DNA of 64,000 bases from an uncultured Eubacteriales bacterium (GCA_964423315.1 CAYREO010000012.1:15534-79533); one strand, 5' to 3'; positions 2,895 through 59,617 are shown, counted from the stretch's first letter. The notes: a model not told the origin generated them from the sequence alone. Program-made: numbers and translations.

Positions 2895-4972
2895 TGAGAG
2901 CCCCGCGCATCACGGCCGGACTGGCCTTCGCTCTGTGCCTGGCGGCCCTCATGGCCCCCGGCCAGGTCGTGGCGGAAAAAGACCTGGCCCCGCAATACCG
3001 GGATTGGCTGAAGCTCGTCGCCTACCACATCCAGCCCGTCGAGCGCGAAGTCTTCATGAAGCTCACGAACAACCGCGAGCGGGACATCTTCATCGAGGCT
3101 TTCTGGAAGCAGCGGGACCCGACGCCCGGCACGCCCGAGAACGAATACAAGGACGAGCTCAACAAGCGCTTTCAGTACGTCAACCAGTTCCTGGGCCGGA
3201 CGACGACCCGGGAGGGCTGGCAGACCGACATGGGGCGCATTTACATGATCCTCGGCCCGCCGGCCAGCATCGAGCGCTACGAGGGAACGCTGGGCCTCGT
3301 CCCCTGCCAGGCCTGGAGCTACTACGGGGACGCCCGCAAGGACCTTCCCCCCCAATTCAACCTCCTGTTCTTCCAGAGGGGCGGCGCGGGCGAGTACAAG
3401 CTCTACGATCCCCTCTCGGACGGCCCGGCCCGCCTCCTGCAGCACCAGAAGGACATCGGCGACCCCTTCGATTACGAGGCCCTCCACGAAAAGATCCTCG
3501 ACATCGCCCCGACCCTGGCCGACATCTCGATCACCCGCATCCCCGGGGAGTACAGCTTCGGGATGGCCCCCTCGCCCCGCAACAACATCCTCCTCGCCAG
3601 CATCCTGGAGTCCCCGAAAAAGGAGGTCAACACCTCCTACGCCACCCACTTCCTCAACTACCGGGGGGTCGTCTCGACGGAGTACCTGACGAACTACGTG
3701 GAGAGCCACGCCTCGACGGCCGTCATCCACGACCCGGTCATGGGCCTGAGGTTCCTCCATTTCACCATCGTCCCGACGAGCGTCAACGTCGATTATTACG
3801 TGCCGAAGAGCCAGTTCTACTGCAATTTCCAGCTCAACGTCAGCCTGCGGGACGGGGACCGCATCATCTTCCAATACAACCGGGAGTTCCCGCTCTATTT
3901 CCCGGAGAGCGACTGGGAGAAGGTCCGGGCCAACGGCCTGGCCATCGAGGACTCCTTCCCCGTCTCCGAGGGCCGGTTCAAGCTCAACGTCCTGCTGACC
4001 AACACGGTCGGCAAGCAGTTCAGCCTCCTGGAGCAGGACGTCATCGTGCCGCCGATGGGAGCGGCCCCTACCATCCAGGGCCCGCTCGTCGGCTACAAGT
4101 TCGAGAGGTACCAGCGCGAGACCCACATCCCCTTCAAGGTCCTCGACCGGAAGCTCGTCGTCGATCCCCAGAGGACTTTCGGGCGGTCCGACGAGATCGC
4201 CATCCAGTTCGACGTCCTGAACGTCACGGACGCCCTTCTCAAAGGCGGGCAGGCCCGGGTCGCGGTCCGCGGCCTGCAGGCGGCCGACCCGGTCCAGAGG
4301 TCCTACATCCTGAGCCTGAACGCCCTGCCGTACGGCCGGATGATCAGCCTGTCGCACACGATCGCCGCGGCGGATCTCGCTCCGGACTTCTACGAGGTCC
4401 TGGTGTCTCTCGTCGGCCCCGGCAGCGAGGTCCTCGACGAGAAGAAGGAGACCTTCATCATCTCTCTGAGCCAGTCCATCGGCCACCCCATCGCCCACGC
4501 CAAAGGGTTCCCGCTGGCCAACCAGTTCCTGTACCGCTACATGCTGGCCCAGCAGGCCGAAAAGCTGGACCGGACGGAGGCGGCCAGGGCCCTTTACGAC
4601 GAGGCCTTCCGCAGCGGGCCGGAATACAAGGAAGGCGTCGTCATGTACGGGAATTTCCTCAACCGCGCCGGGGCCTTTGAGGAGGCCCTGAGGATCGGCG
4701 ACGAGCTCCGGGAGGACGATCGGCGCCAGTTCCCGTATTACGTCATCCGGGGCCAGGCCCTCCTGGGGCTGGAACGATACGAGGACGCCCTGACGAACCT
4801 GCTCAAGGCCAACGAGATCTACAACAGCGACACGGCCGTCCTGAACGCCCTCGGGCTTTGCTACCACCGGCTGGGCAGAAAAACGGAAGCCCTGGAAGCC
4901 CTCAAAGCGTCGCTCAAACTGAACCCCGGACAGGACTCCGTTAAGAGCCTCATCCAAGAGATCGAGAGATAA
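2894..4972 (+). CDS. GWxTD-domain protein with C-terminal TPR repeats
   Basis: ATG at 2894 overlaps the upstream stop (ORF-track start 2396 is too early); FWKQRDPTPGTPENEY, GWQTDMGRIYMILGPP; TPRs at C-terminus. Confidence 0.9.
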   Translation: MRAPRITAGLAFALCLAALMAPGQVVAEKDLAPQYRDWLKLVAYHIQPVEREVFMKLTNNRERDIFIEAFWKQRDPTPGTPENEYKDELNKRFQYVNQFLGRTTTREGWQTDMGRIYMILGPPASIERYEGTLGLVPCQAWSYYGDARKDLPPQFNLLFFQRGGAGEYKLYDPLSDGPARLLQHQKDIGDPFDYEALHEKILDIAPTLADISITRIPGEYSFGMAPSPRNNILLASILESPKKEVNTSYATHFLNYRGVVSTEYLTNYVESHASTAVIHDPVMGLRFLHFTIVPTSVNVDYYVPKSQFYCNFQLNVSLRDGDRIIFQYNREFPLYFPESDWEKVRANGLAIEDSFPVSEGRFKLNVLLTNTVGKQFSLLEQDVIVPPMGAAPTIQGPLVGYKFERYQRETHIPFKVLDRKLVVDPQRTFGRSDEIAIQFDVLNVTDALLKGGQARVAVRGLQAADPVQRSYILSLNALPYGRMISLSHTIAAADLAPDFYEVLVSLVGPGSEVLDEKKETFIISLSQSIGHPIAHAKGFPLANQFLYRYMLAQQAEKLDRTEAARALYDEAFRSGPEYKEGVVMYGNFLNRAGAFEEALRIGDELREDDRRQFPYYVIRGQALLGLERYEDALTNLLKANEIYNSDTAVLNALGLCYHRLGRKTEALEALKASLKLNPGQDSVKSLIQEIER

Positions 4973-26936: not shown

Positions 26937-27035
26937 TCGATAGGCGCCGGCAAAACCGGTTTTTGGTCCAGAAAAAGCCGTTTAAGCCGATCTCGACGGC
27001 TTGGCCGATTTGATATCTTGAGCGATATCAGTGAC

Positions 27036-28400
27036 ATGGAACAGCCAGGGCAGCTGAGGAGGGCGCTGGGCCGATGGGACCTGACGGCCATCGGGGTCAA
27101 CCAGGTCATCGGCAGCGCTATCTTTCTGATGCCGTCGCAGGTTGCGGTCCAGGTCGGCGCCTGGGGACCGTTGGCTTTCCTGGCCGTCGGCTTCGCCTCG
27201 CTGCTCGTGGCCCTCTGCTTCGCCGAGGTCGGCAGCCGGTTCGAGGGGACGGGCGGGCCCTACCTCTACACGCGGGCGGCCTTCGGGCGGTTCGCGGCCT
27301 TCGAGATCGGCTGGATGCAGTGGTTTACGCGCGTCACGAGCTACGCGTCGGTGGCCAACGGCATCGCTCTGGCCCTCGGCTTTTACTGGCCGGCGGTCAA
27401 GGGCGGGTGGACGCGGGCGGCGATGCTGACAGCGCTCATGGGAGCGCTGGCCGTCATCAACGTCCGGGGCATCCGGCAGAGCGCCTGGACGGTCAACATC
27501 CTGACGATCGGCAAGCTCGCTCCGCTCGCGGTGTTCATCGTCGTCGGGCTGTTCTTCGTGGACCCGGGGCGGCTCGGGCCTTTGCCGCCGGTCGACGCCG
27601 GGTCGGCCGCGGCGGCGGCGCTCCTGCTGATCTTCGTGTATGGCGGTTACGATGTGGTCCCGGTGCCGGCGGGAGAGGCCACGGCGCCGCGGCGGCACGT
27701 GCCGTTCGCCCTCGTTTCGACCATCCTCGTCGTGACGGCGGTCATGACGGCGGCCCAGGTCGTGGCCATGGGGACCTTGCCCGGGATCGAGGGGTCGGCG
27801 ACCCCGCTGGCCGACGCGGCGCTTCTGTTCATGGGCGGGGCCGGGGCGCTGATGATCGGTGTCGGGTCGATCGTCTTGATGACCGGCAACAACGCCGGCC
27901 AGGTCCTGACCGGCTCGCGGATGCTGTTCGCCCTGGCCGAGCACGGCGAGCTGCCGGCGTTCGTCGGGCGCGTCCATCCCGTCTATCGGACGCCGGCCAA
28001 CGCCGTGTTGATCACTTCGGCCGTGTCTCTCGCCCTGGCCCTCTCAGGCACGTTCGTCTGGCTGGCCATCGCCAGCGCGGTGTCGCGGCTGCTGACCTAC
28101 ACGGCGTCGTGCGCGGCGACGCTCGTCCTGAGGAGCCCGCGGTTCGAGGGCAAGGTCGCTCCGGCCACGTTCGTCACGCCCCTCGGACCGGTCGTGCCGG
28201 TCCTGGCGCTCGGCGTCTCCGCGGCCGTCCTGGCCGGCGCCACGCTCGCCCAACTGGCCGGCGGACTGGCGGCCCTGGCCGCCGGCGCCCTCCTCTATGC
28301 CTTGAGAAGGGGAAGAAGGGGTCAAACCGGGAAGAAGGGGTCAAATCTCCAATCATTAAATTTTCATCGGCTTCGATGCTGGTTGCTATCGAAAATTTAA
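27036..28400 (+). CDS. APC-family amino acid permease; C-terminus reads into a type A repeat
   Basis: LRRALGRWDL, GVNQVIGSAIF, GGPYLY..AAFG, YRTPANA; stop TAA lies in the right arm of the hairpin. Confidence 0.92.
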   Translation: MEQPGQLRRALGRWDLTAIGVNQVIGSAIFLMPSQVAVQVGAWGPLAFLAVGFASLLVALCFAEVGSRFEGTGGPYLYTRAAFGRFAAFEIGWMQWFTRVTSYASVANGIALALGFYWPAVKGGWTRAAMLTALMGALAVINVRGIRQSAWTVNILTIGKLAPLAVFIVVGLFFVDPGRLGPLPPVDAGSAAAAALLLIFVYGGYDVVPVPAGEATAPRRHVPFALVSTILVVTAVMTAAQVVAMGTLPGIEGSATPLADAALLFMGGAGALMIGVGSIVLMTGNNAGQVLTGSRMLFALAEHGELPAFVGRVHPVYRTPANAVLITSAVSLALALSGTFVWLAIASAVSRLLTYTASCAATLVLRSPRFEGKVAPATFVTPLGPVVPVLALGVSAAVLAGATLAQLAGGLAALAAGALLYALRRGRRGQTGKKGSNLQSLNFHRLRCWLLSKI

Positions 28401-28424
28401 TGATTGGAGATTTGACCCCTTCTT
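28332..28424. repeat. Type A hairpin element, copy 1 (perfect 34-bp arms, 25-nt spacer)
   Basis: AAGAAGGGGTCAAATCTCCAATCATTAAATTTTC at 28332-28365 and its exact reverse complement at 28391-28424. Confidence 0.97.
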
Positions 28425-28563
28425 GGCCCTTCTTGACCGGACCATCCGCATGCCTTGTTCTAAGACGCACAAATCGCGCTGATCTTTTCAAAGTTCAACG
28501 TGCCGGACTCCCCACCGGAGGCATTTGTCAATGCCCGGCCTTCCGCGATATACTGGCGGGCCG

Positions 28564-29085
28564 ATGTATCCGTATCTCCGCGTCGCCCGGATCCTGCTTA
28601 TGGCGGCCTTCAAGCCCCGCGCGGGGCTCGACGATGTGGGCGAACTCACCTTGCGCGTCTGGCCGAGCGACATCGACACCTATCCCGAGATGAACAACGG
28701 CCGCTTCTGGACCATCATGGACCTCGGCCGCTACGACCTGGCCTTCCGGAGCGGCCTCATGCAAATGGCCCAGCGCAAGGGCTGGTTTTTCGTGGTCGCC
28801 GGCGGAAGCATGCGCTACCGGCGCCGTCTGCCGCCCTTCGCCCGATTCACGCTCAGGACCCGGCTCGTCGGCCACGACGGCCGATGGTTCTACTTCGTCC
28901 AGGAGTTCGTGCATCGGGGGCTCGTGGCGGCCCAAGCCGTCATCCGGGCCGGGCTGCGGACCAAGGCCTCGGCTATCCCCTCGACGGCCATCCTTGAGGC
29001 CTTCGGTCGCCCCGATTGGGCCCCCGCGCTCCCCGGCTGGGTCCAGGCCTGGATCGAGGCCGAGGAGGCCCGCCCGCCCCTCTGA
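28564..29085 (+). CDS. Thioesterase-family (hotdog fold) protein
   Basis: RVWPSDIDTYPEMNNGRFWTIMDLGRYDL, YRRRLPPF; start 28564 preferred over 28525. Confidence 0.88.
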   Translation: MYPYLRVARILLMAAFKPRAGLDDVGELTLRVWPSDIDTYPEMNNGRFWTIMDLGRYDLAFRSGLMQMAQRKGWFFVVAGGSMRYRRRLPPFARFTLRTRLVGHDGRWFYFVQEFVHRGLVAAQAVIRAGLRTKASAIPSTAILEAFGRPDWAPALPGWVQAWIEAEEARPPL

Positions 29086-29093
29086 ACGAAGAG

Positions 29094-29181
29094 GGGGTCA
29101 AATCTCCAATCATTAAATTTTCGATAGCAACCAGCATCGAAGCCGATGAAAATTTAATGATTGGAGATTTGACCCCTTCTT
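29094..29181. repeat. Type A hairpin element, copy 2 (spacer is the exact reverse complement of copy 1)
   Basis: Arms 29094-29122 and 29148-29176; spacer GATAGCAACCAGCATCGAAGCCGAT. Confidence 0.97.
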
Positions 29182-29281
29182 GCGGGCCCGCCGCTCCGCC
29201 GTCGGCCCCGATGAGGCATTCCGCGGCGATAACGGCTATAATATCCTTTTACGCATCGTCTCGTTGATGGAGAGCCCGAAC

Positions 29282-30028
29282 ATGAAAAGAACCGCCCTCA
29301 CCCTGCTCGCGGCGACGGCCCTCTTCGCGGGCCCGGCCGCCCTTTCGTTCGGCCAGTGGCTCGTCGATCTCGAGAACGGCCTGGCCCTCAGCGGCTATAA
29401 CGACGTCCGCATCCCCGGCGACACGGGAACGCTCTTCTCGCTCTCCCGGGAGCTCAAGACCGACCCCGCTTACTTCGCCCGTCTCCGCCTGGGCTATCAC
29501 TGGAAGTCCCGGCACACTGTCTCCCTTTTCGCCGCGCCGCTCCGCCTCCGGGCCGCGGGCGCCGTCGACCGGCCCATCGTCTTTTTCGAAGAGACGTTCC
29601 CCGCCGGGACGCCCCTCACGGGCACGTACACCTTCAACTCCTACCGCCTGACCTACCGCTACGATCTCGTCCGCGGCAGCACGTGGCGCGTCGGCCTCGG
29701 CCTGACGGCCAAGATCCGCGACGCGGCCATCCGGATCGAGGGCGGCGGCCTGTCCTCCACCAAGACCAACGTCGGCTTCGTGCCCCTTCTCCACTTCCGC
29801 GTCCTGTGGCAATTCCGAGAGGCCTGGGGATTGCTCCTCGAAGGGGACGCCGCCGCGGCCAAGCAGGGACGCGCCGAGGACGTCCTTCTGGCCCTGCAAT
29901 GGAAGCTCATGGACGGTCTGTCCCTGAGATTGGGATACCGGATCCTCGAGGGCGGCGCGAACGTCGACGAGGTCTACAGCTTCTCGCTCATCCACTTCCT
30001 CAGCGCCGGGCTGACGGTTGCTTTTTAG
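29282..30028 (+). CDS. Hypothetical outer-membrane beta-barrel protein
   Basis: Signal peptide, NDVRIPGDTGT, amphipathic strands, terminal Phe. Confidence 0.75.
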   Translation: MKRTALTLLAATALFAGPAALSFGQWLVDLENGLALSGYNDVRIPGDTGTLFSLSRELKTDPAYFARLRLGYHWKSRHTVSLFAAPLRLRAAGAVDRPIVFFEETFPAGTPLTGTYTFNSYRLTYRYDLVRGSTWRVGLGLTAKIRDAAIRIEGGGLSSTKTNVGFVPLLHFRVLWQFREAWGLLLEGDAAAAKQGRAEDVLLALQWKLMDGLSLRLGYRILEGGANVDEVYSFSLIHFLSAGLTVAF

Positions 30029-30116
30029 GCGCGCATGGATTAAAAGAACCTTCGTGGGCCCGTCGAACCGTCGGCCCATTCGTCCATCCACCCCTTCGTA
30101 GGAGGAACGACCGACC

Positions 30117-32312
30117 ATGAAAAAAACCGCCGTCACCGCCGTCCTCGCCGCCGGCCTCGGGCTGCTCCTGCTCTCTGCGACGGCCTGCAAGTCCGAGACC
30201 CCCGCGCCGCCGGCCGCGCCCCTGTCCGAAGCCGCCGCCGCGGCCGCCGCCGAGGGCAACCCGTTCTTCGCTCCCTACGGCACGCCCTTCGACGTCCCGC
30301 CCTTCGACCGCATCAAGAACGAGCACTTCCTTCCGGCCATCGAGGAAGGCATCCGGCGCGAGCAGGCCGAGATCGAGGCCATCGTCGCGAACCGCAAGGC
30401 CCCGACCTTCGAGAACACGATCGCCGCCCTCGACCGCACGGGGATCTTCCTCTCGGAAGTCAACGCCGTCTACGGCGCCCTCCAGGGCGCCCACACGAAC
30501 AAGGAGCTCCAAGCCCTGGCCCGCCAAACAGCGCCCCTGCTGGCCGCCCATCGCGACAACATCGCCCTCAACGAGAAGCTCTTCGCCCGGGTCAAGGCCG
30601 TTTACGACAAGCGCGCCAAGCTCAAGCTCGACCGCGAGGAGCTCTTCCTCCTCGAGAACACCTACCGCGAATTCGTCCGGGCCGGCGCCCTGCTCGGCGA
30701 GGCCGACAAGGCCCGCCTCCGGGACCTCAATCAGGGGCTGTCGCTCGAGAGCGTGAAGTTCGGCGAGAACGTCCTGGGCGAGATCAACGCCTTCCAGCTC
30801 GTCATCGACAGGAGGGCCGACCTCGCCGGACTCCCACCGTCGGTCGTGGCCATGGGCGCCGAGGCCGCCAAGCAGGCCGGGCTTCCGGGCAAGTGGCTGT
30901 TCACCATCCACGTCCCGAGCATGACCCCCTTCCTGACCTATTCCGAACGGCGCGACCTCCGCGAGAAGCTCCACCGGGCCTACTTCATGAAGGGAGACAA
31001 CGACAACGAGCGCGACAACAAGGAGATCGCCAAGAGGATCGCCGACCTGCGCCGCCAGCGGGCCGTGATCCTCGGCTACCCGAACCATGCGGCCTTCGTC
31101 CTCGAGACCAACATGGCCAAGACGCCCGAGCGGGTCGACGCCTTCCTGCGGCAGCTCTGGGAGCCGACCGCCGTCAAGGCCCGCGAGGAGGCCGCCGCCC
31201 TCCAGGCCCTCATCGACCGCGGGCGCGGAAGGTTCGAGCTCGCGTCCTGGGACTGGTGGTATTACACCGAGAAGCTCCGCCAGGAGAAGTACGCCCTCGA
31301 CGACTCCGCCCTGCGGCCCTACTTCAAGCTCGACAACGTCCGCGAGGGGATCTTCGCCCTGTGCGGGAAGCTCTACGGGCTGAGGTTCATCGAGCGGCCG
31401 GAGCTGCCGCGCTACCATCCCGAGGTCCAGGTCTATGAGGTCCAGGAGGCCGACGGTTCGCACACCGGCATCCTCTACATGGATTTCCATCCGCGGCCGA
31501 GCAAGCGCGCCGGAGCCTGGTCGGGGGGCTTCCGGAGGGCTTGGTACGACAAGGGCGTGCGCGTGCCGCCCGTCGCGACCATCGTCTGTAATTTCACGGC
31601 GCCGACGGCCGACGCCCCGTCGCTGCTTTCGACCGACGAGGTCGAGACCTTCTTCCATGAATTCGGCCACGCCCTGGCGACCCTTTTCTCACAGGGCCGC
31701 TACCGCAGCCGCTCCGTGGCCCGCGATTCCGTGGAGCTGCCGTCGCAAATCATGGAGCACTGGGCCTTCGAGCCGGAGCTGCTGGCCCTGTACGCCAAAC
31801 ACTACGTGACGGGCGAGGTCATTCCCGCCGAGCTCGTCGACAAGCTCGAGCGGAGCAGCCTCTTCAACCAGGGTTTCATCACCGCGGAATACCTCGCGGC
31901 CTCGATCCTCGACATGGCCTGGCACACCCTGCCGAACCCGTCGGAGATCGATGTCCGGCAGTTCGAGAAGGACCTGCTGGACGGGATCGGCCTCATCCCG
32001 GCCATCCAGCCGCGATATCGATCGACGTACTTCAACCACATCTTCAGCGGCGGGTACTCAGCCGGCTACTACGCCTACATCTGGTCGGAAGTGCTGGATT
32101 GCGACGCCTACGAGGCCTTCAAGGAGAAAGGCATCTTCGACCGGGCCACGGCCGAGTCGTTCCGCAAGAATGTCCTCGAGCCCTTCGGCACCGAGGACCC
32201 CATGACCCAGTACGTTCGCTTCCGCGGCGCCGAGCCCAAGATCGACGGCCTGCTCCGCAAGCGCGGTCTTGGGGTCAAGCGCGGTCTTGGGGTCGGACCA
32301 ACAAATAATTAA
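30117..32312 (+). CDS. dcp: M3-family peptidase (Dcp-like), lipoprotein; C-terminus reads into a type B repeat
   Basis: NPFFAPYGTPFDVPPF, SWDWWYY, HEFGH, DSVELPSQIMEHW, GYSAGYYAYIWSE. Confidence 0.93.
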   Translation: MKKTAVTAVLAAGLGLLLLSATACKSETPAPPAAPLSEAAAAAAAEGNPFFAPYGTPFDVPPFDRIKNEHFLPAIEEGIRREQAEIEAIVANRKAPTFENTIAALDRTGIFLSEVNAVYGALQGAHTNKELQALARQTAPLLAAHRDNIALNEKLFARVKAVYDKRAKLKLDREELFLLENTYREFVRAGALLGEADKARLRDLNQGLSLESVKFGENVLGEINAFQLVIDRRADLAGLPPSVVAMGAEAAKQAGLPGKWLFTIHVPSMTPFLTYSERRDLREKLHRAYFMKGDNDNERDNKEIAKRIADLRRQRAVILGYPNHAAFVLETNMAKTPERVDAFLRQLWEPTAVKAREEAAALQALIDRGRGRFELASWDWWYYTEKLRQEKYALDDSALRPYFKLDNVREGIFALCGKLYGLRFIERPELPRYHPEVQVYEVQEADGSHTGILYMDFHPRPSKRAGAWSGGFRRAWYDKGVRVPPVATIVCNFTAPTADAPSLLSTDEVETFFHEFGHALATLFSQGRYRSRSVARDSVELPSQIMEHWAFEPELLALYAKHYVTGEVIPAELVDKLERSSLFNQGFITAEYLAASILDMAWHTLPNPSEIDVRQFEKDLLDGIGLIPAIQPRYRSTYFNHIFSGGYSAGYYAYIWSEVLDCDAYEAFKEKGIFDRATAESFRKNVLEPFGTEDPMTQYVRFRGAEPKIDGLLRKRGLGVKRGLGVGPTNN

Positions 32313-32406
32313 TGTTTTCAATAAGATAAATGCCATTTCGGGCCGTCCTCAAACTGTACGCGGCACAATTTTGGCCCAAAAAACGAAGAGGTCGGGTCCC
32401 GTGTCT
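32289..32406 (-). repeat. Type B element (reverse orientation; far end approximate)
   Basis: GGGGTCGGACCA at 32289-32300; TTGA on the minus strand exactly 21 nt from TGGTCC. Confidence 0.85.
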
Positions 32407-32418
32407 GGAGTCCGAAAC

Positions 32419-35316
32419 ATGAAAAAGCCGCTCGCCTCCATCGCCTTCCTGGCCTGTATCTCCGCCCTCATCCTGATGACCCTGACGGTCTCAGGCTCTA
32501 CGCCCCGCACGCATCTTTCGCTTTCCGCGCAAAACCAAGCCCAAGCCCCGCCCCAAACGCTGTCCGACCCCCCCGCCCTCGACCCCTACGCCCCCGACAT
32601 CCCCGAACCCGGCTCGGTCGAGGCCATCGCCAAGTTCACGACCGAACCGCGCTTCGCCAGCCCCTGGGTCGCCTACGTTCCTGCCTCCGACACCGTCGTC
32701 TCGCCGACCCGCTACCTCGGCCGCATCGTCGGCGCCGCCGGCGAGCTGTCGTCGGTCTCCCAGATCTACGGCTATTTCCGCAAGCTCGCCGAGACCTCCC
32801 CGCGCGTCCGCGTCGAGACCATCGGACGCACCGAGGAAGGCCGCGACATCCTCCTCGCCGTCATCTCCGACGAGGCCGGCCTCCGCGACCTCGACCGCCT
32901 GAAAGCCGCCACCGCCGCCCTCGCTGACCCTCGCCGCACATCCCCCGAGGCCGCCGAGGCCCTCATCGCCGCCTCCCGTCCCATCTACTTCTTCAACGCC
33001 GGCCTCCACTCGCCCGAGCTCGGCAGCCCCGAGATGGTCATGGAGCTCGCCTACCGCCTGGCCGTCTCCGAGCAGCCCATGATCCGCCGCATCCGCAGCC
33101 GCCTCGTCATTCTCATCAACCCCGTCTCCGAGCCGGACGGCCGCGACAAGCAGGTCGAGTGGTTCTATCGCCACCTCAAGGGCAAGACCGACTACGATAA
33201 CCTGCCGCCCACCTCGCCCCCCTACTGGGGCCACTACGTCTTCCACGATAACAACCGCGACACCCACCAGTCCGCGCTCGCTCTCTCCAAGGCCGTCAGC
33301 CGGATGTTCTTCGACTACCACCCGACCGTCTTCCACGACCTCCACGAGTCCATCCCCCTCCTCCAGACCTGGAACGGCACGGGTCCCTTCAACGTCCACC
33401 TCGACCCCATCCTCATCAACGAGTTCTTCGCCATGGCCTTCGCCGAGGTCGGCGCCCTGACCTCGCTCGGCATGCCCGGCGTCTGGACCTGGGGCTTCGG
33501 CGAGGGCTGGGGCCACCATTATCTCGACTCGATTGCCGTCAACCACAACAGCATGGGCCGCGGATACGAAACCTTCGGCAACGGCACGGCCGAGACCGTC
33601 GAGCGCATCCTCCGCCCGAACGAGGAGCGCTACGTCAACCGCCCCGTGACCAGCCGCGAATGGTACCGCCCGCTCCCCCCGCCCCGCAAGTTCCTCTGGT
33701 CGCTGCGCAATAACATCAACTACCAGCAGTCCGGCTGCTTGGCCATCCTCGACTACGCCGCCAAGAACGCCGACGGGATGCTCCGCGACTTCTACCGCAA
33801 GGGCTTCAACTCGTGGCAGAAGGGCGTGCGGGGCGGCCCCCACGCCTTCGCCATCCCCGCCGACCAGGGCGACCGCCGCCGCGTCGCCGAGATGATCGAG
33901 CTCCTCCTCGCCCAGCGCATCGAGGTCGGTCGTGCGCAGGACGCCTTCAAGGTCGATGAGGGCGAGTTCGCCGCCGGCACTTACGTCGTGCGCCTCGACC
34001 AGCCCTACCGCAACTACGCCGTCGACCTCCTCCTGCCCCAGATGTTCCCCCCCGACGCCGCCTACGAACCCTACGACGACGTCTCCTGGTCGCTCCCCGT
34101 CCACTTCGGCGTCGAGGCCAGGCGCATCGACGACGCCGCGGTCAAGGACGTCGGCCTCGAGCCCCTCGCCGCCGGCTTCTTGTCCACCCTTCCCGGCCGG
34201 GTCGAGGGCGCGGGCCCGGTCTTCCTGATGAAGGACACCGGCCAGGAGGCCCTCCTCGCTCTCCGACACCGCCTGGCGGGCTTCCGGGTCGAGATCGCCG
34301 AGAAGGCCTTCAGATCCGGCGAGACCGACTATCCCGCGGGCTCATGGGTCCTGCCGCCGCAGAAGGGGCTCGCCGATTCCTTGGCCCGCGCCGCCGCCGA
34401 GCTCGCCGTGGACTTCGCGAGCGCCCCGTCCGCGCCCGACGTTCCCCGCCACGAATCGAGGCTGCCGCGCCTCGCCGTCTGGCACACGTGGGCCGACACC
34501 GAGGCCGTCGGCTGGGTGCGGCTCGTCCTCGACCGCCAGAAGATCCCTTACGCCTACATCCGTGACGACGATATCCGGGCCGGGCGCCTGAACGACAAGT
34601 ACGACGTCATCCTTTTCGCCCACACCTATCTCGGCCTCCAGGACCAGATCCACGGCCTCGACCGGAAATTCGGGCCGATGGCCTACACGAGGACCAAGGA
34701 ATACCCGAGCCACGGCGTCCCGACCGCATCCGAGGACATCACCGGCGGGATCGGCTGGGCGGGGATGGCCAACCTCGAGCGGTTCCTCGCCGCCGGCGGG
34801 ACCCTCATCACCCTCGGCAACGGCTCGGCGCTCGCCCTCGACGGCGGGCTCGTCCGCGACGTGCGGCGCAAGTCGGGGGCCTTCTTCACGCCGGGCTCGG
34901 AGCTGCGCGTGAAATTCGTCCGGCCCGATCACCCGCTGGCCTACGGGCTGCCCGGGACGGGCTCGGTCTTCCGGACTTCGATGCCGGTCTACGACGTCCC
35001 CGTCGCGGCGCGCGGCGCGGTCGTCCTTCAGTGGGGGACCAAGCTCCGCAAGGAGGACCGCGAGGACGAAAGCCCCGAGGCGCTCGCGGCGCTGACCAGG
35101 GCGGAGCGGGAGGCACGGGAGAAAGCCGCGAAGGACGAGCCGAAGATGCTCGTCAGCGGCGCCGTCAAGGGCGACGACGACCTCGAGGGCCGCCCGGCCA
35201 TCCTCGATCTCGCGGTCGGCAAGGGCCGGGTCATCGCCTTCAACTTCAATCCCGTCCACCGCGACCTGAACCGCTCGGACCACCGCCTGCTCTGGAACGC
35301 CCTCCTGAATTGGTAA
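32419..35316 (+). CDS. Exported M14-family zinc carboxypeptidase with C-terminal GATase-like domain
   Basis: ATG 32419; AGLHSPE, NPDG-like EPDG, DNNRD, FHDLHE. Confidence 0.9.
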   Translation: MKKPLASIAFLACISALILMTLTVSGSTPRTHLSLSAQNQAQAPPQTLSDPPALDPYAPDIPEPGSVEAIAKFTTEPRFASPWVAYVPASDTVVSPTRYLGRIVGAAGELSSVSQIYGYFRKLAETSPRVRVETIGRTEEGRDILLAVISDEAGLRDLDRLKAATAALADPRRTSPEAAEALIAASRPIYFFNAGLHSPELGSPEMVMELAYRLAVSEQPMIRRIRSRLVILINPVSEPDGRDKQVEWFYRHLKGKTDYDNLPPTSPPYWGHYVFHDNNRDTHQSALALSKAVSRMFFDYHPTVFHDLHESIPLLQTWNGTGPFNVHLDPILINEFFAMAFAEVGALTSLGMPGVWTWGFGEGWGHHYLDSIAVNHNSMGRGYETFGNGTAETVERILRPNEERYVNRPVTSREWYRPLPPPRKFLWSLRNNINYQQSGCLAILDYAAKNADGMLRDFYRKGFNSWQKGVRGGPHAFAIPADQGDRRRVAEMIELLLAQRIEVGRAQDAFKVDEGEFAAGTYVVRLDQPYRNYAVDLLLPQMFPPDAAYEPYDDVSWSLPVHFGVEARRIDDAAVKDVGLEPLAAGFLSTLPGRVEGAGPVFLMKDTGQEALLALRHRLAGFRVEIAEKAFRSGETDYPAGSWVLPPQKGLADSLARAAAELAVDFASAPSAPDVPRHESRLPRLAVWHTWADTEAVGWVRLVLDRQKIPYAYIRDDDIRAGRLNDKYDVILFAHTYLGLQDQIHGLDRKFGPMAYTRTKEYPSHGVPTASEDITGGIGWAGMANLERFLAAGGTLITLGNGSALALDGGLVRDVRRKSGAFFTPGSELRVKFVRPDHPLAYGLPGTGSVFRTSMPVYDVPVAARGAVVLQWGTKLRKEDREDESPEALAALTRAEREAREKAAKDEPKMLVSGAVKGDDDLEGRPAILDLAVGKGRVIAFNFNPVHRDLNRSDHRLLWNALLNW

Positions 35317-35327
35317 AGAATGAAGAG

Positions 35328-35410
35328 GGGGTCAAATCTCCAATCATTAAATTTCATGCCGGCGAAACGATCGCGGAGCGTGAAAATTTAATGATTGGAG
35401 ATTTGACCCC
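35328..35410. repeat. Type A hairpin element, copy 3 (different spacer) between convergent genes
   Basis: GGGGTCAAATCTCCAATCATTAAATTT ... AAATTTAATGATTGGAGATTTGACCCC. Confidence 0.95.
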
Positions 35411-35416
35411 TTCTTT

Positions 35417-45930: not shown

Positions 45931-45968
45931 GGGACATTCGGCGCGCTAGAATAGCACTTCGCGCAGAG

Positions 45969-46050
45969 GGGGTCAAATCTTCAATCATTAAATTTTCCGG
46001 CGCTCCGGTGTCCGACGATCTGAAGAATTGAATGATTGAGGGTTTGACCC
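45969..46050. repeat. Type A hairpin element, copy 4 (right arm degenerate)
   Basis: GGGGTCAAATCTTCAATCATTAAATTTTC ... GAATTGAATGATTGAGGGTTTGACCC. Confidence 0.88.
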
Positions 46051-46084
46051 TTCTGATTTGAACCCTTCTTCTGCGGCCCGCGGC

Positions 46085-49350: not shown

Positions 49351-49824
49351 ATGAAGAAAATGAACGCGCTGCTGGTCATCGGCCTGATCGGCATTCTGAC
49401 CATCGGCGTCAACTTCGGCGTCCAATCGAAGCGCGCTTTCAGCGGTGACCCAGGCATCTGGTGGACCGCGAAGACGATGCCTTTGAGCTTCGAGGAAACT
49501 CAGAAGGCCTTCGAGCTGTTCATCGATGGCCGGCTCCTCCAGAGACACCTTGCCGACGGGACGCTGATGATCGCGAGGAGCGACGGCGAACACCATCGCC
49601 TCGAACCGGGCGATATCGCCGTTCGCATCAACAATTGGCACAAGGTCAGAGCATCGATCCTGGCCCAGGCCCTGCCGTCCTGCTTTTTGTTCGGCGTGAG
49701 CCTGACGATGCTGGTCCTAGGCCTCGCTCAGATCGTGGCCAGGAAGAGGGGAGGCTCGACCGGCGGCGGCCAACTCGATCAAGAAGGGGTCAAATCTCCA
49801 ATCATTAAAAATTCTCCGCTCTGA
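49351..49824 (+). CDS. Hypothetical membrane protein; C-terminus reads into hybrid A/B element
   Basis: AAGGAGG RBS; hydrophobic N- and C-segments; ends QEGVKSPIIKNSPL. Confidence 0.75.
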   Translation: MKKMNALLVIGLIGILTIGVNFGVQSKRAFSGDPGIWWTAKTMPLSFEETQKAFELFIDGRLLQRHLADGTLMIARSDGEHHRLEPGDIAVRINNWHKVRASILAQALPSCFLFGVSLTMLVLGLAQIVARKRGGSTGGGQLDQEGVKSPIIKNSPL

Positions 49825-59575: not shown

Positions 59576-59617
59576 GCAAGAAGGGGAGCAAGAAGGGGAG
59601 GTTTGACCCTCTCCCCG
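59576..59617. repeat. Collapsed type A-like remnant or terminator at the toxin 3' end
   Basis: GCAAGAAGGGGA x2 then GGTTTGACCCTCTCCCC; both outer ends of type A with the arms missing. Confidence 0.5.

Follow-up and report, generated by a model that had tools for sequence, protein, structure and literature searches.

Two nearly identical hairpin repeats flank a thioesterase gene in the 64,000-nt stretch of DNA analysed here (the window). The pair records one recent copying of a whole hairpin, arms and loop together, over a distance of 757 bp. In the explanation that we judge best, and hold to be quite probable, both hairpins are members of a repeat family and one is a very recent whole-element copy of the other, while the thioesterase is a resident gene and the pair serves as a passive substrate for recombination.

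Structure and identity of the hairpin pair

The features of the locus are as follows:

27036..28400, + strand: amino-acid permease gene (Pfam AA_permease_2, E 4.5e-41)
28313..28328, + strand: remnant of an older left end (AAGAAGGGGTCAAACC), 16/16 match to the start of the L003 and L016 arms
28332..28424, no strand assigned: hairpin repeat copy 1, arms 28332-28365 and 28391-28424 (34/34 paired), loop 28366-28390
28425..28434, + strand: probable older right-end remnant (GGCCCTTCTT; compare GGCCCCTTCT in L003), a weak, short match made by eye
28525..28554, + strand: sigma-70-like promoter of the thioesterase, TTGTCA-18-TATACT, 10/12 positions
28564..29085, + strand: thioesterase gene, 173 aa, 4HBT_2 / FadM-like (Pfam PF13279, E 2.3e-16)
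29089..29181, no strand assigned: hairpin repeat copy 2, arms 29089-29122 and 29148-29181 (one G-T position), loop 29123-29147

Each hairpin comprises two arms of 34 nt and a loop of 25 nt, and the two copies lie in opposite orientation. A first-pass annotation of this DNA had described the two spacers as exact reverse complements, and this was confirmed: loop 2 is the reverse complement of loop 1, and the window contains the loop sequence ATCGGCTTCGATGCTGGTTGCTATC just two times, with one occurrence per strand, against none expected by chance. The arms, described in the same place as identical, are nearly but not strictly so. Hairpin 1 and the reverse complement of hairpin 2 agree at 92 of 93 positions and differ at one, with T instead of the expected C at 28420; this is the same difference as that between A28336 and G29093. 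The enclosed segment had been put at about 670 bp and said to hold only the thioesterase with its upstream region. It measures exactly 664 nt (28425-29088) and contains a promoter-like site and the ORF, as described. Hairpin 2 starts 3 nt past the thioesterase stop codon.

The GC-content is 32% in the arms and 52% in the loop, compared with 66% in the window. As RNA, hairpins 1 and 2 fold with predicted energies of −64 and −59 kcal/mol (z of about −11 to −12 versus shuffled sequence); as DNA, the values are −39 and −36 kcal/mol (z = −13.7 and −12.2 versus shuffled sequence). A lone arm has a minimum free energy of 0 and no self-structure. The orientation of a hairpin is set only by its loop and one asymmetric arm position, and since the arms are palindromic, an inverted copy is as easily made as a direct one. 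For the same reason the pair offers two kinds of homology, as had been proposed from the sequence: a 93-nt inverted repeat (99% identical) and direct homology of 34 nt.

A dispersed repeat family of Aminicenantes

Both hairpins belong to a dispersed family of Aminicenantes repeats that do not code for protein and that form hairpins. The family unit is an inverted pair of an AT-rich end unit of ~34 nt, starting GGGGTCAAA, around a spacer of ~25 nt. The arm pattern has 8 matches in the 64-kb window versus 0 expected. Beyond the pair, the window holds the following family members:

35323..35415, no strand assigned: third full copy, same arms and unrelated loop, between an M14-peptidase-like ORF and a convergent gene
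45964..46071, no strand assigned: degenerate full copy (copy 4) with a doubled right end
49781..49814, + strand: solo arm (half copy)
59578..59613, no strand assigned: collapsed remnant with the outer end sequences alone left (weak match)

Copies with the same arms were found on nine other Aminicenantes contigs, two of them belonging to one other MAG (exact arm pattern, two loci) and seven coming from metagenome assemblies (degenerate pattern, seven loci); a first scan of metagenomes with the exact pattern gave zero matches. In the source metagenome, the depth of the arm is 10–17 times that of the unique flanks, and the arm adjoins many different flanking sequences.

Among the 13 full copies, loops are GC-rich and 17–37 nt long, plus one of 198 nt, and they are unrelated in all pairs but that of hairpins 1 and 2. 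Loops of hairpins that share a site in the window and in the related contig L003 are no more alike than expected by chance. The arms covary, with 93.4% of cells paired and 6 pairs and 19 cells changed on both sides, a level reached in 0 of 500 shuffles. They are uniform within a genome and different between genomes at the same sites. A search of the 13 copies for target-site duplications, over all boundary offsets, revealed no consistent direct repeat, and no Rfam family was matched in the whole window.

Along this block of the window, the order is permease, hairpin, thioesterase, hairpin, OMP-like gene, a gap with no repeat, M3, a repeat of another kind, M14 and hairpin; the last of these (35323..35415) occupies the same position as hairpin L003_c. 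Nearly every gene gap in the block thus carries a repeat, and at this density a gene bracketed by two hairpins is to be expected.

The thioesterase as a resident gene

The thioesterase and the promoter that belongs to it have long resided at the locus and were not brought in by the repeats. It has 99 homologues, most of them 173 aa long, with a best identity of 84%. On the related contigs L003, L006, L020, L021 and L022, the gene is followed on the same strand by an OMP-like gene of ~249 aa, and the promoter module (from 28520 on) is also found in L020, L003 and the closest relative described below. The gene order in relatives is DUF3943, permease, (MFS or Hcp), thioesterase, ~249-aa OMP-like gene, (M3), M14, where brackets mark optional genes. 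The DNA of the related contigs is collinear with the window and contains no inverted piece. The orientation of the 664-nt segment in the window, which is that of the original assembly, agrees with all relatives. Pfam families were assigned to the permease, DUF3943, thioesterase and M3 ORFs, with the OMP-like ORF falling in no family; no recombinase was found among these Pfam-scanned neighbours (permease, DUF3943, thioesterase, OMP-like and M3).

The closest relative seen was recovered from runs X6 and X8 of two other studies, with ~92% nucleotide identity (92–94% over the gene). It carries the permease, thioesterase and downstream gene in the same order and orientation, with a hairpin at neither junction. 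In a 597-nt contig of this relative, 122 unrelated nt separate the permease end (to 28301) from the promoter (from 28520) and the thioesterase. Neither the first nor the last 30 of these 122 nt match a family arm, and the 62 in the middle leave too little room for a hairpin. On a 436-nt contig, the 3' end of the thioesterase (to 29091) is followed by 7 other letters and then by the sequence from 29224 onward. Relative to this empty site, the window has the hairpin of copy 2 plus 42 extra nt, which means that the insertion was not clean.

That these genes occur in unchanged order and orientation in the absence of hairpins indicates that the thioesterase is the resident and the hairpins are the newcomers. 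Loss of hairpins in the X6/X8 lineage, instead of gain in the lineage of the window, may also account for the difference. A comparison of the locus between relatives, which had been suggested as a check, found the gene fixed and syntenic in the five contigs and in the X6/X8 relative.

Permease tail and repeat turnover at the junctions

The repeat has altered the end of the upstream gene. From about 28302 on, the permease reading frame runs through repeat DNA, which supplies its last ~33 codons; the tail reads ...YALRRGRRGQTGKKGSNLQSLNFHRLRCWLLSKI*, and the TAA stop codon lies inside the right arm of hairpin 1. Permeases in relatives are 429–431 aa long. The homology of the permease region to the X6/X8 relative stops at 28301, and the protein of this relative ends ...YALQLL.

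The junctions bear traces of earlier occupation. In L003 (84% amino acid identity), the permease is followed at the identical point by a family hairpin with a different, again compensated, arm variant and another loop, and further hairpins come after the next two genes. The remnant at 28313..28328 has the arm variant of this L003 hairpin at the same site. L021 (84%) begins inside a family arm directly 5' of the thioesterase, and both L003 and L021 have a degenerate element 3' of the gene. A decayed copy lies upstream in L006, which has a different type of repeat downstream, and L018 retains a collapsed remnant upstream of the thioesterase. Doubled ends were also observed at copy 4 and, in the source metagenome, at one more locus. 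Together with the older-end remnants beside hairpin 1, they suggest that new copies land in or beside old ends. The unique flanks at 28425-28519 and 29182-29281 had no match elsewhere among the sequences compared. Other gene units (MFS, Hcp and M3) have been gained or lost among relatives at these repeat-bearing junctions.

Depth and assembly evidence for two copies

Run-level evidence came from Logan contigs (k = 31), which end within the 34-nt arms. In the best-covered source run (X1), the 84-nt arm-loop-arm contig had a depth of 16.4 versus 8.2–9.0 for the unique flanks. This twofold depth fits two real copies of the loop. In thinner source runs, the ratio of loop-contig to flank depth was only 1.0–1.5.

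A misresolved repeat, pasted by the assembler with one loop into both sites, would give the same picture, and several observations could be read this way: the independent k = 31 contigs break inside the arms and cannot tie the loop to its flanks, the loop is clearly at twice the flank depth in X1 only, and one low-coverage contig is a demonstrable chimera. The last is a 230-nt contig of run X3 that joins the flank of copy 3 to the loop of hairpins 1 and 2, and it was rejected as a third copy of the loop. We nevertheless find an assembly artefact scarcely credible. Besides the twofold depth in X1, neither pair of flanks has any alternative loop contig attached, and an arm contig specific to copy 2 (G at 29093) continues into the first loop base expected for that copy. 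Moreover, an assembler k-mer above about 40 would span flank, arm and part of the loop.

In the interval 28425-28583, contigs were missing in three runs, with a different start point in each. These absences probably reflect coverage gaps and tip clipping beside a high-depth repeat node, and no variant. In RNA runs, only 5–6% of the sampled words were present; the organism is absent from those runs.

Origin of the matched pair

The first-pass annotation had taken the identity of the hairpins as a sign of a recent event, and this view is supported: they are the only pair among the 13 copies to share a loop, and loop-specific words (two sampled words only) were found solely in runs of the source study. 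The same annotation had allowed that the spacer might occur in many scattered copies, which would make its identity unremarkable; among the 13 full copies, the loop is shared by this pair only.

Two routes could have led to the shared loop. The hairpin, in single-stranded form, may have been copied by a RAYT-like (TIRYT) HUH tyrosine transposase, which leaves no target duplication, or conversion or template switching might have taken place between neighbouring copies. Insertion is favoured by the empty sites in the closest relative and by the leftover old ends, whereas conversion is favoured by the position of the sole difference, at the outer arm end, and by the occupation of both sites in distant relatives. 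On balance, we would put copying by a transposase slightly above an even chance and leave a substantial minority share to conversion or template switching.

A reading with no transposition at all, in which gene conversion or replication template switching between two resident hairpins equalised their loops, seems to us possible but rather doubtful. Palindromic arms would let the donor pair either way, making an inverted loop as likely as a direct one. The single difference (28420 / 29093) lies where a tract bounded by the arms would leave old sequence, arms are alike within a genome and unlike between genomes at the same sites, and the more distant L003 and L021 carry family elements at both junctions. 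The closest relative, however, has no hairpin at either site, and equalisation explains neither the tandem leftover of an old end beside a complete new element nor the similar doubled ends at other copies. It is also improbable, in our estimation, that the hairpins are kept as functional RNA or DNA structures (bidirectional terminators, insulators, or RNase III or protein-binding sites) that delimit the thioesterase transcription unit, with mobility being secondary. Such a role would suit their location at or over the stop codons of upstream genes, the A-tract, GC-rich stem base and T-tract present on both strands, the compensated changes that keep base pairing, and the hairpins at the same gene boundaries in diverged relatives (for example after M14 and before the thioesterase). 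Yet a terminator scan did not call the hairpins, Rfam had no match for them, a relative with the same genes lives without them, and their identical loops would be left unexplained.

Homologous recombination on the pair could invert the thioesterase through the 93-nt inverted repeat or delete it through the 34-nt direct repeats. A composite mobile unit made up of the hairpins and the gene, or a segment programmed for inversion or excision, is nonetheless highly improbable. The repeats themselves would permit it, the segment has its own promoter and would be expressible in either orientation, and the MFS, Hcp and M3 units come and go at exactly these junctions in relatives. But the first-pass suggestion of a minimal composite mobile unit does not survive the comparison with relatives, in which the thioesterase keeps its place and strand, in the ~92% identical relative without hairpins as well as in the five contigs. 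An inverted form occurs in no relative and the unit was not found anywhere else; the Pfam-scanned ORFs include no recombinase and the window no RAYT/TIRYT transposase. A broader proposal, that matched hairpin pairs act as modules which excise, invert or exchange gene units and that the thioesterase unit is poised for such an event, is in our view a long shot. If true, it would turn the gain and loss of MFS, Hcp and M3 into a repeat-driven, cassette-like gene flux in Aminicenantes that operates without an integron integrase. We keep to a recent whole-element copy beside a resident gene. As judged from the sequence, the pair would be a passive recombination substrate with no sign of a dedicated switch, and programmed inversion is unlikely.

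Implications

The outcome is ordinary in that a resident gene of housekeeping type lies between two copies of a dense intergenic repeat. The pair is a natural marker of the process behind it, showing a whole hairpin copied over a short distance, in either orientation, though loops are otherwise never shared. The observation is relevant to the multiplication of REPIN-like repeats in an uncultured phylum that has been little studied. Such repeats also rewrite gene ends, as in the replaced C-terminus of the permease, and mark junctions where relatives differ in gene content.

Comparison with known repeat systems

MITEs of DDE transposons (e.g., Correia/NEMIS) have terminal inverted repeats, lie between genes, give rise to hairpin-forming transcripts and are bordered by a target-site duplication of fixed length. 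The window hairpins resemble them in size, inverted repeats, intergenic location and predicted hairpin-forming transcripts. Assignment to this class was rejected, as no target-site duplication was present at any boundary offset and the interior is not conserved. Integron cassettes are promoterless and are defined by GTTRRRY core sites, co-oriented attC sites and IntI. This class was rejected as well: no GTTRRRY occurs at the hairpin borders, the gene has its own conserved promoter, and the sites are inverted. The gene inside a composite transposon is cargo, missing from the site where the flanking elements are missing and found with them elsewhere, and a programmed invertible segment exists in both orientations within a population, near a site-specific recombinase. 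Composite transposons and invertible switches of the hin or fimS type share with this locus a gene or promoter placed between inverted repeats; this locus has no flanking IS and, among the Pfam-scanned ORFs, no recombinase gene, and relatives devoid of the repeats carry the enclosed gene in the same place.

Rickettsia palindromic elements and intragenic REPs are inserted at or in the ends of coding regions and contribute extra residues to the encoded protein (PMC3733652). In a similar manner, ~33 aa at the end of the permease come from the repeat, but the sequence family and host are different, and the effect here is confined to the extreme 3' end of the gene.

REPINs consist of two inverted units and a spacer and form a hairpin of ~100 nt that is copied whole (Bertels & Rainey 2011, PMC3116915; PMC3337134). 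They are non-autonomous, presumably depend on a single-copy Y1 transposase, and are maintained by vertical descent (PMC3116915; PMC3337134). The pair of hairpins 1 and 2 is like a REPIN in being a copy of a whole doublet. REP units are themselves small palindromes with a GTAG or CGTC tag, whereas the arm here has neither feature, and the loops of the window family are otherwise unrelated between copies. Membership in REP sensu stricto was rejected on the same grounds (single arm not palindromic, with a folding energy of 0, and no GTAG or CGTC at the ends).

TIRs ('TIRtrons', Di Nocera, De Gregorio & Rocco 2013), which flank the RAYT-like tyrosine transposase genes known as TIRYT, are short repeats dispersed between genes, with a unit that is not palindromic by itself (PMC3733652). 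Inverted dimers or clusters of them are frequent and can fold as a single long hairpin, and the spacers of dimers may differ in sequence while being similar in length; many share the end motif GGGGWSAS, and Acidobacteria have their own distinct TIRYT group (PMC3733652). A tblastn search of the window and 23 loci with six RAYT/TIRYT proteins published with that paper gave nothing significant, and a motif scan of the same window and loci for Y1/HUH transposases found none. One tblastn match with E 0.001 was rejected as a transposase because it lies inside the M3 peptidase gene, and a weak transposase match in L013 was discarded as lying inside a kinase-like ORF, as judged from its translation.

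The window family differs from TIRYT TIRs in that its dimers are near-perfect 34-bp stems with strict compensation, and a cognate transposase gene was not found in the window. Its arm end GGGGTCAA agrees with GGGGWSAS at only 7 of 8 positions, the last being A where S is expected. Like these TIRs, it is short, dispersed and mostly intergenic and lacks a target-site duplication, and its inverted dimers fold as one hairpin, with loops of 17–37 nt (198 nt in one copy) in a class characterised by spacers of 20–100 nt. Overall, TIR/REP-dimer repeats served by RAYT-like (TIRYT) tyrosine transposases appear to be the nearest described kind.

Gene content at repeat-bearing junctions

Window positions 27000-35400 form a syntenic block with the related contigs L003, L006, L020 and L021, and gene units have been gained or lost at the repeat-bearing junctions. 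An MFS gene lies between the permease and thioesterase genes in L006. In L020 this position is taken by Hcp; in L021, Hcp follows the OMP-like gene. The M3 peptidase gene is absent from L003 and L021, and L003 carries a hairpin at that junction. In another related contig, L018, the thioesterase has different neighbours on both sides (sortilin-like upstream, methyltransferase downstream), and a collapsed remnant of the hairpin family, AAGAAGGATCCCCTTCTT (3955-3975), lies directly 5' of the thioesterase promoter.

The permease frame at 28302-28400 of the window crosses an old-end remnant, the left arm and the loop and then enters the right arm of hairpin 1, the copy upstream of the thioesterase gene; repeat DNA thus encodes a C-terminal tail of ~33 aa. 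The L003 orthologue likewise stops within an arm of its own hairpin. In the closest relative (~92% nucleotide identity), which has no hairpin at either junction, the permease stop lies 5 codons past the breakpoint.

Thioesterase promoter and start

The thioesterase promoter module, GGCATTTGTCAAT...GATATACT, occupies 28520-28554 of the window and was compared with L021 2040-2075 and L020 3960-3995. In L021 a near-identical module also precedes the M14 peptidase gene. The Shine-Dalgarno stretch that relatives have between their -10 box and the thioesterase ATG is missing from the window; because of this, the mRNA may be leaderless, or translation may start at ATG 28531 instead.

Arm polarity and associated repeats

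At arm position 5, 7 of the 13 copies in alignment A3 have AAGAG in one arm and AAGAA in the other, so that one strand has a G-T pair where the opposite strand has an A-C mismatch. This recurring asymmetry gives a polarity to an element that is otherwise palindromic.

The family arms in L016 (78-343) enclose a 198-nt interior containing another GC-rich palindromic repeat, GATAGGCATCCCCCTGAAGACCCCC-like, which looks like a nested insertion within the hairpin loop. The same inner repeat is also present in L014 (7936-8125), where it follows a solo arm.

At 32286-32330 of the window, a repeat end of another type, made up of GGGGTCGGACC and then an AT-rich stretch, overlaps the M3 peptidase stop. 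The GGGGTCGGACC-type end was also found after the thioesterase in L006 (5525-5610), and it shares its GGGGTC start with the family hairpin arms.
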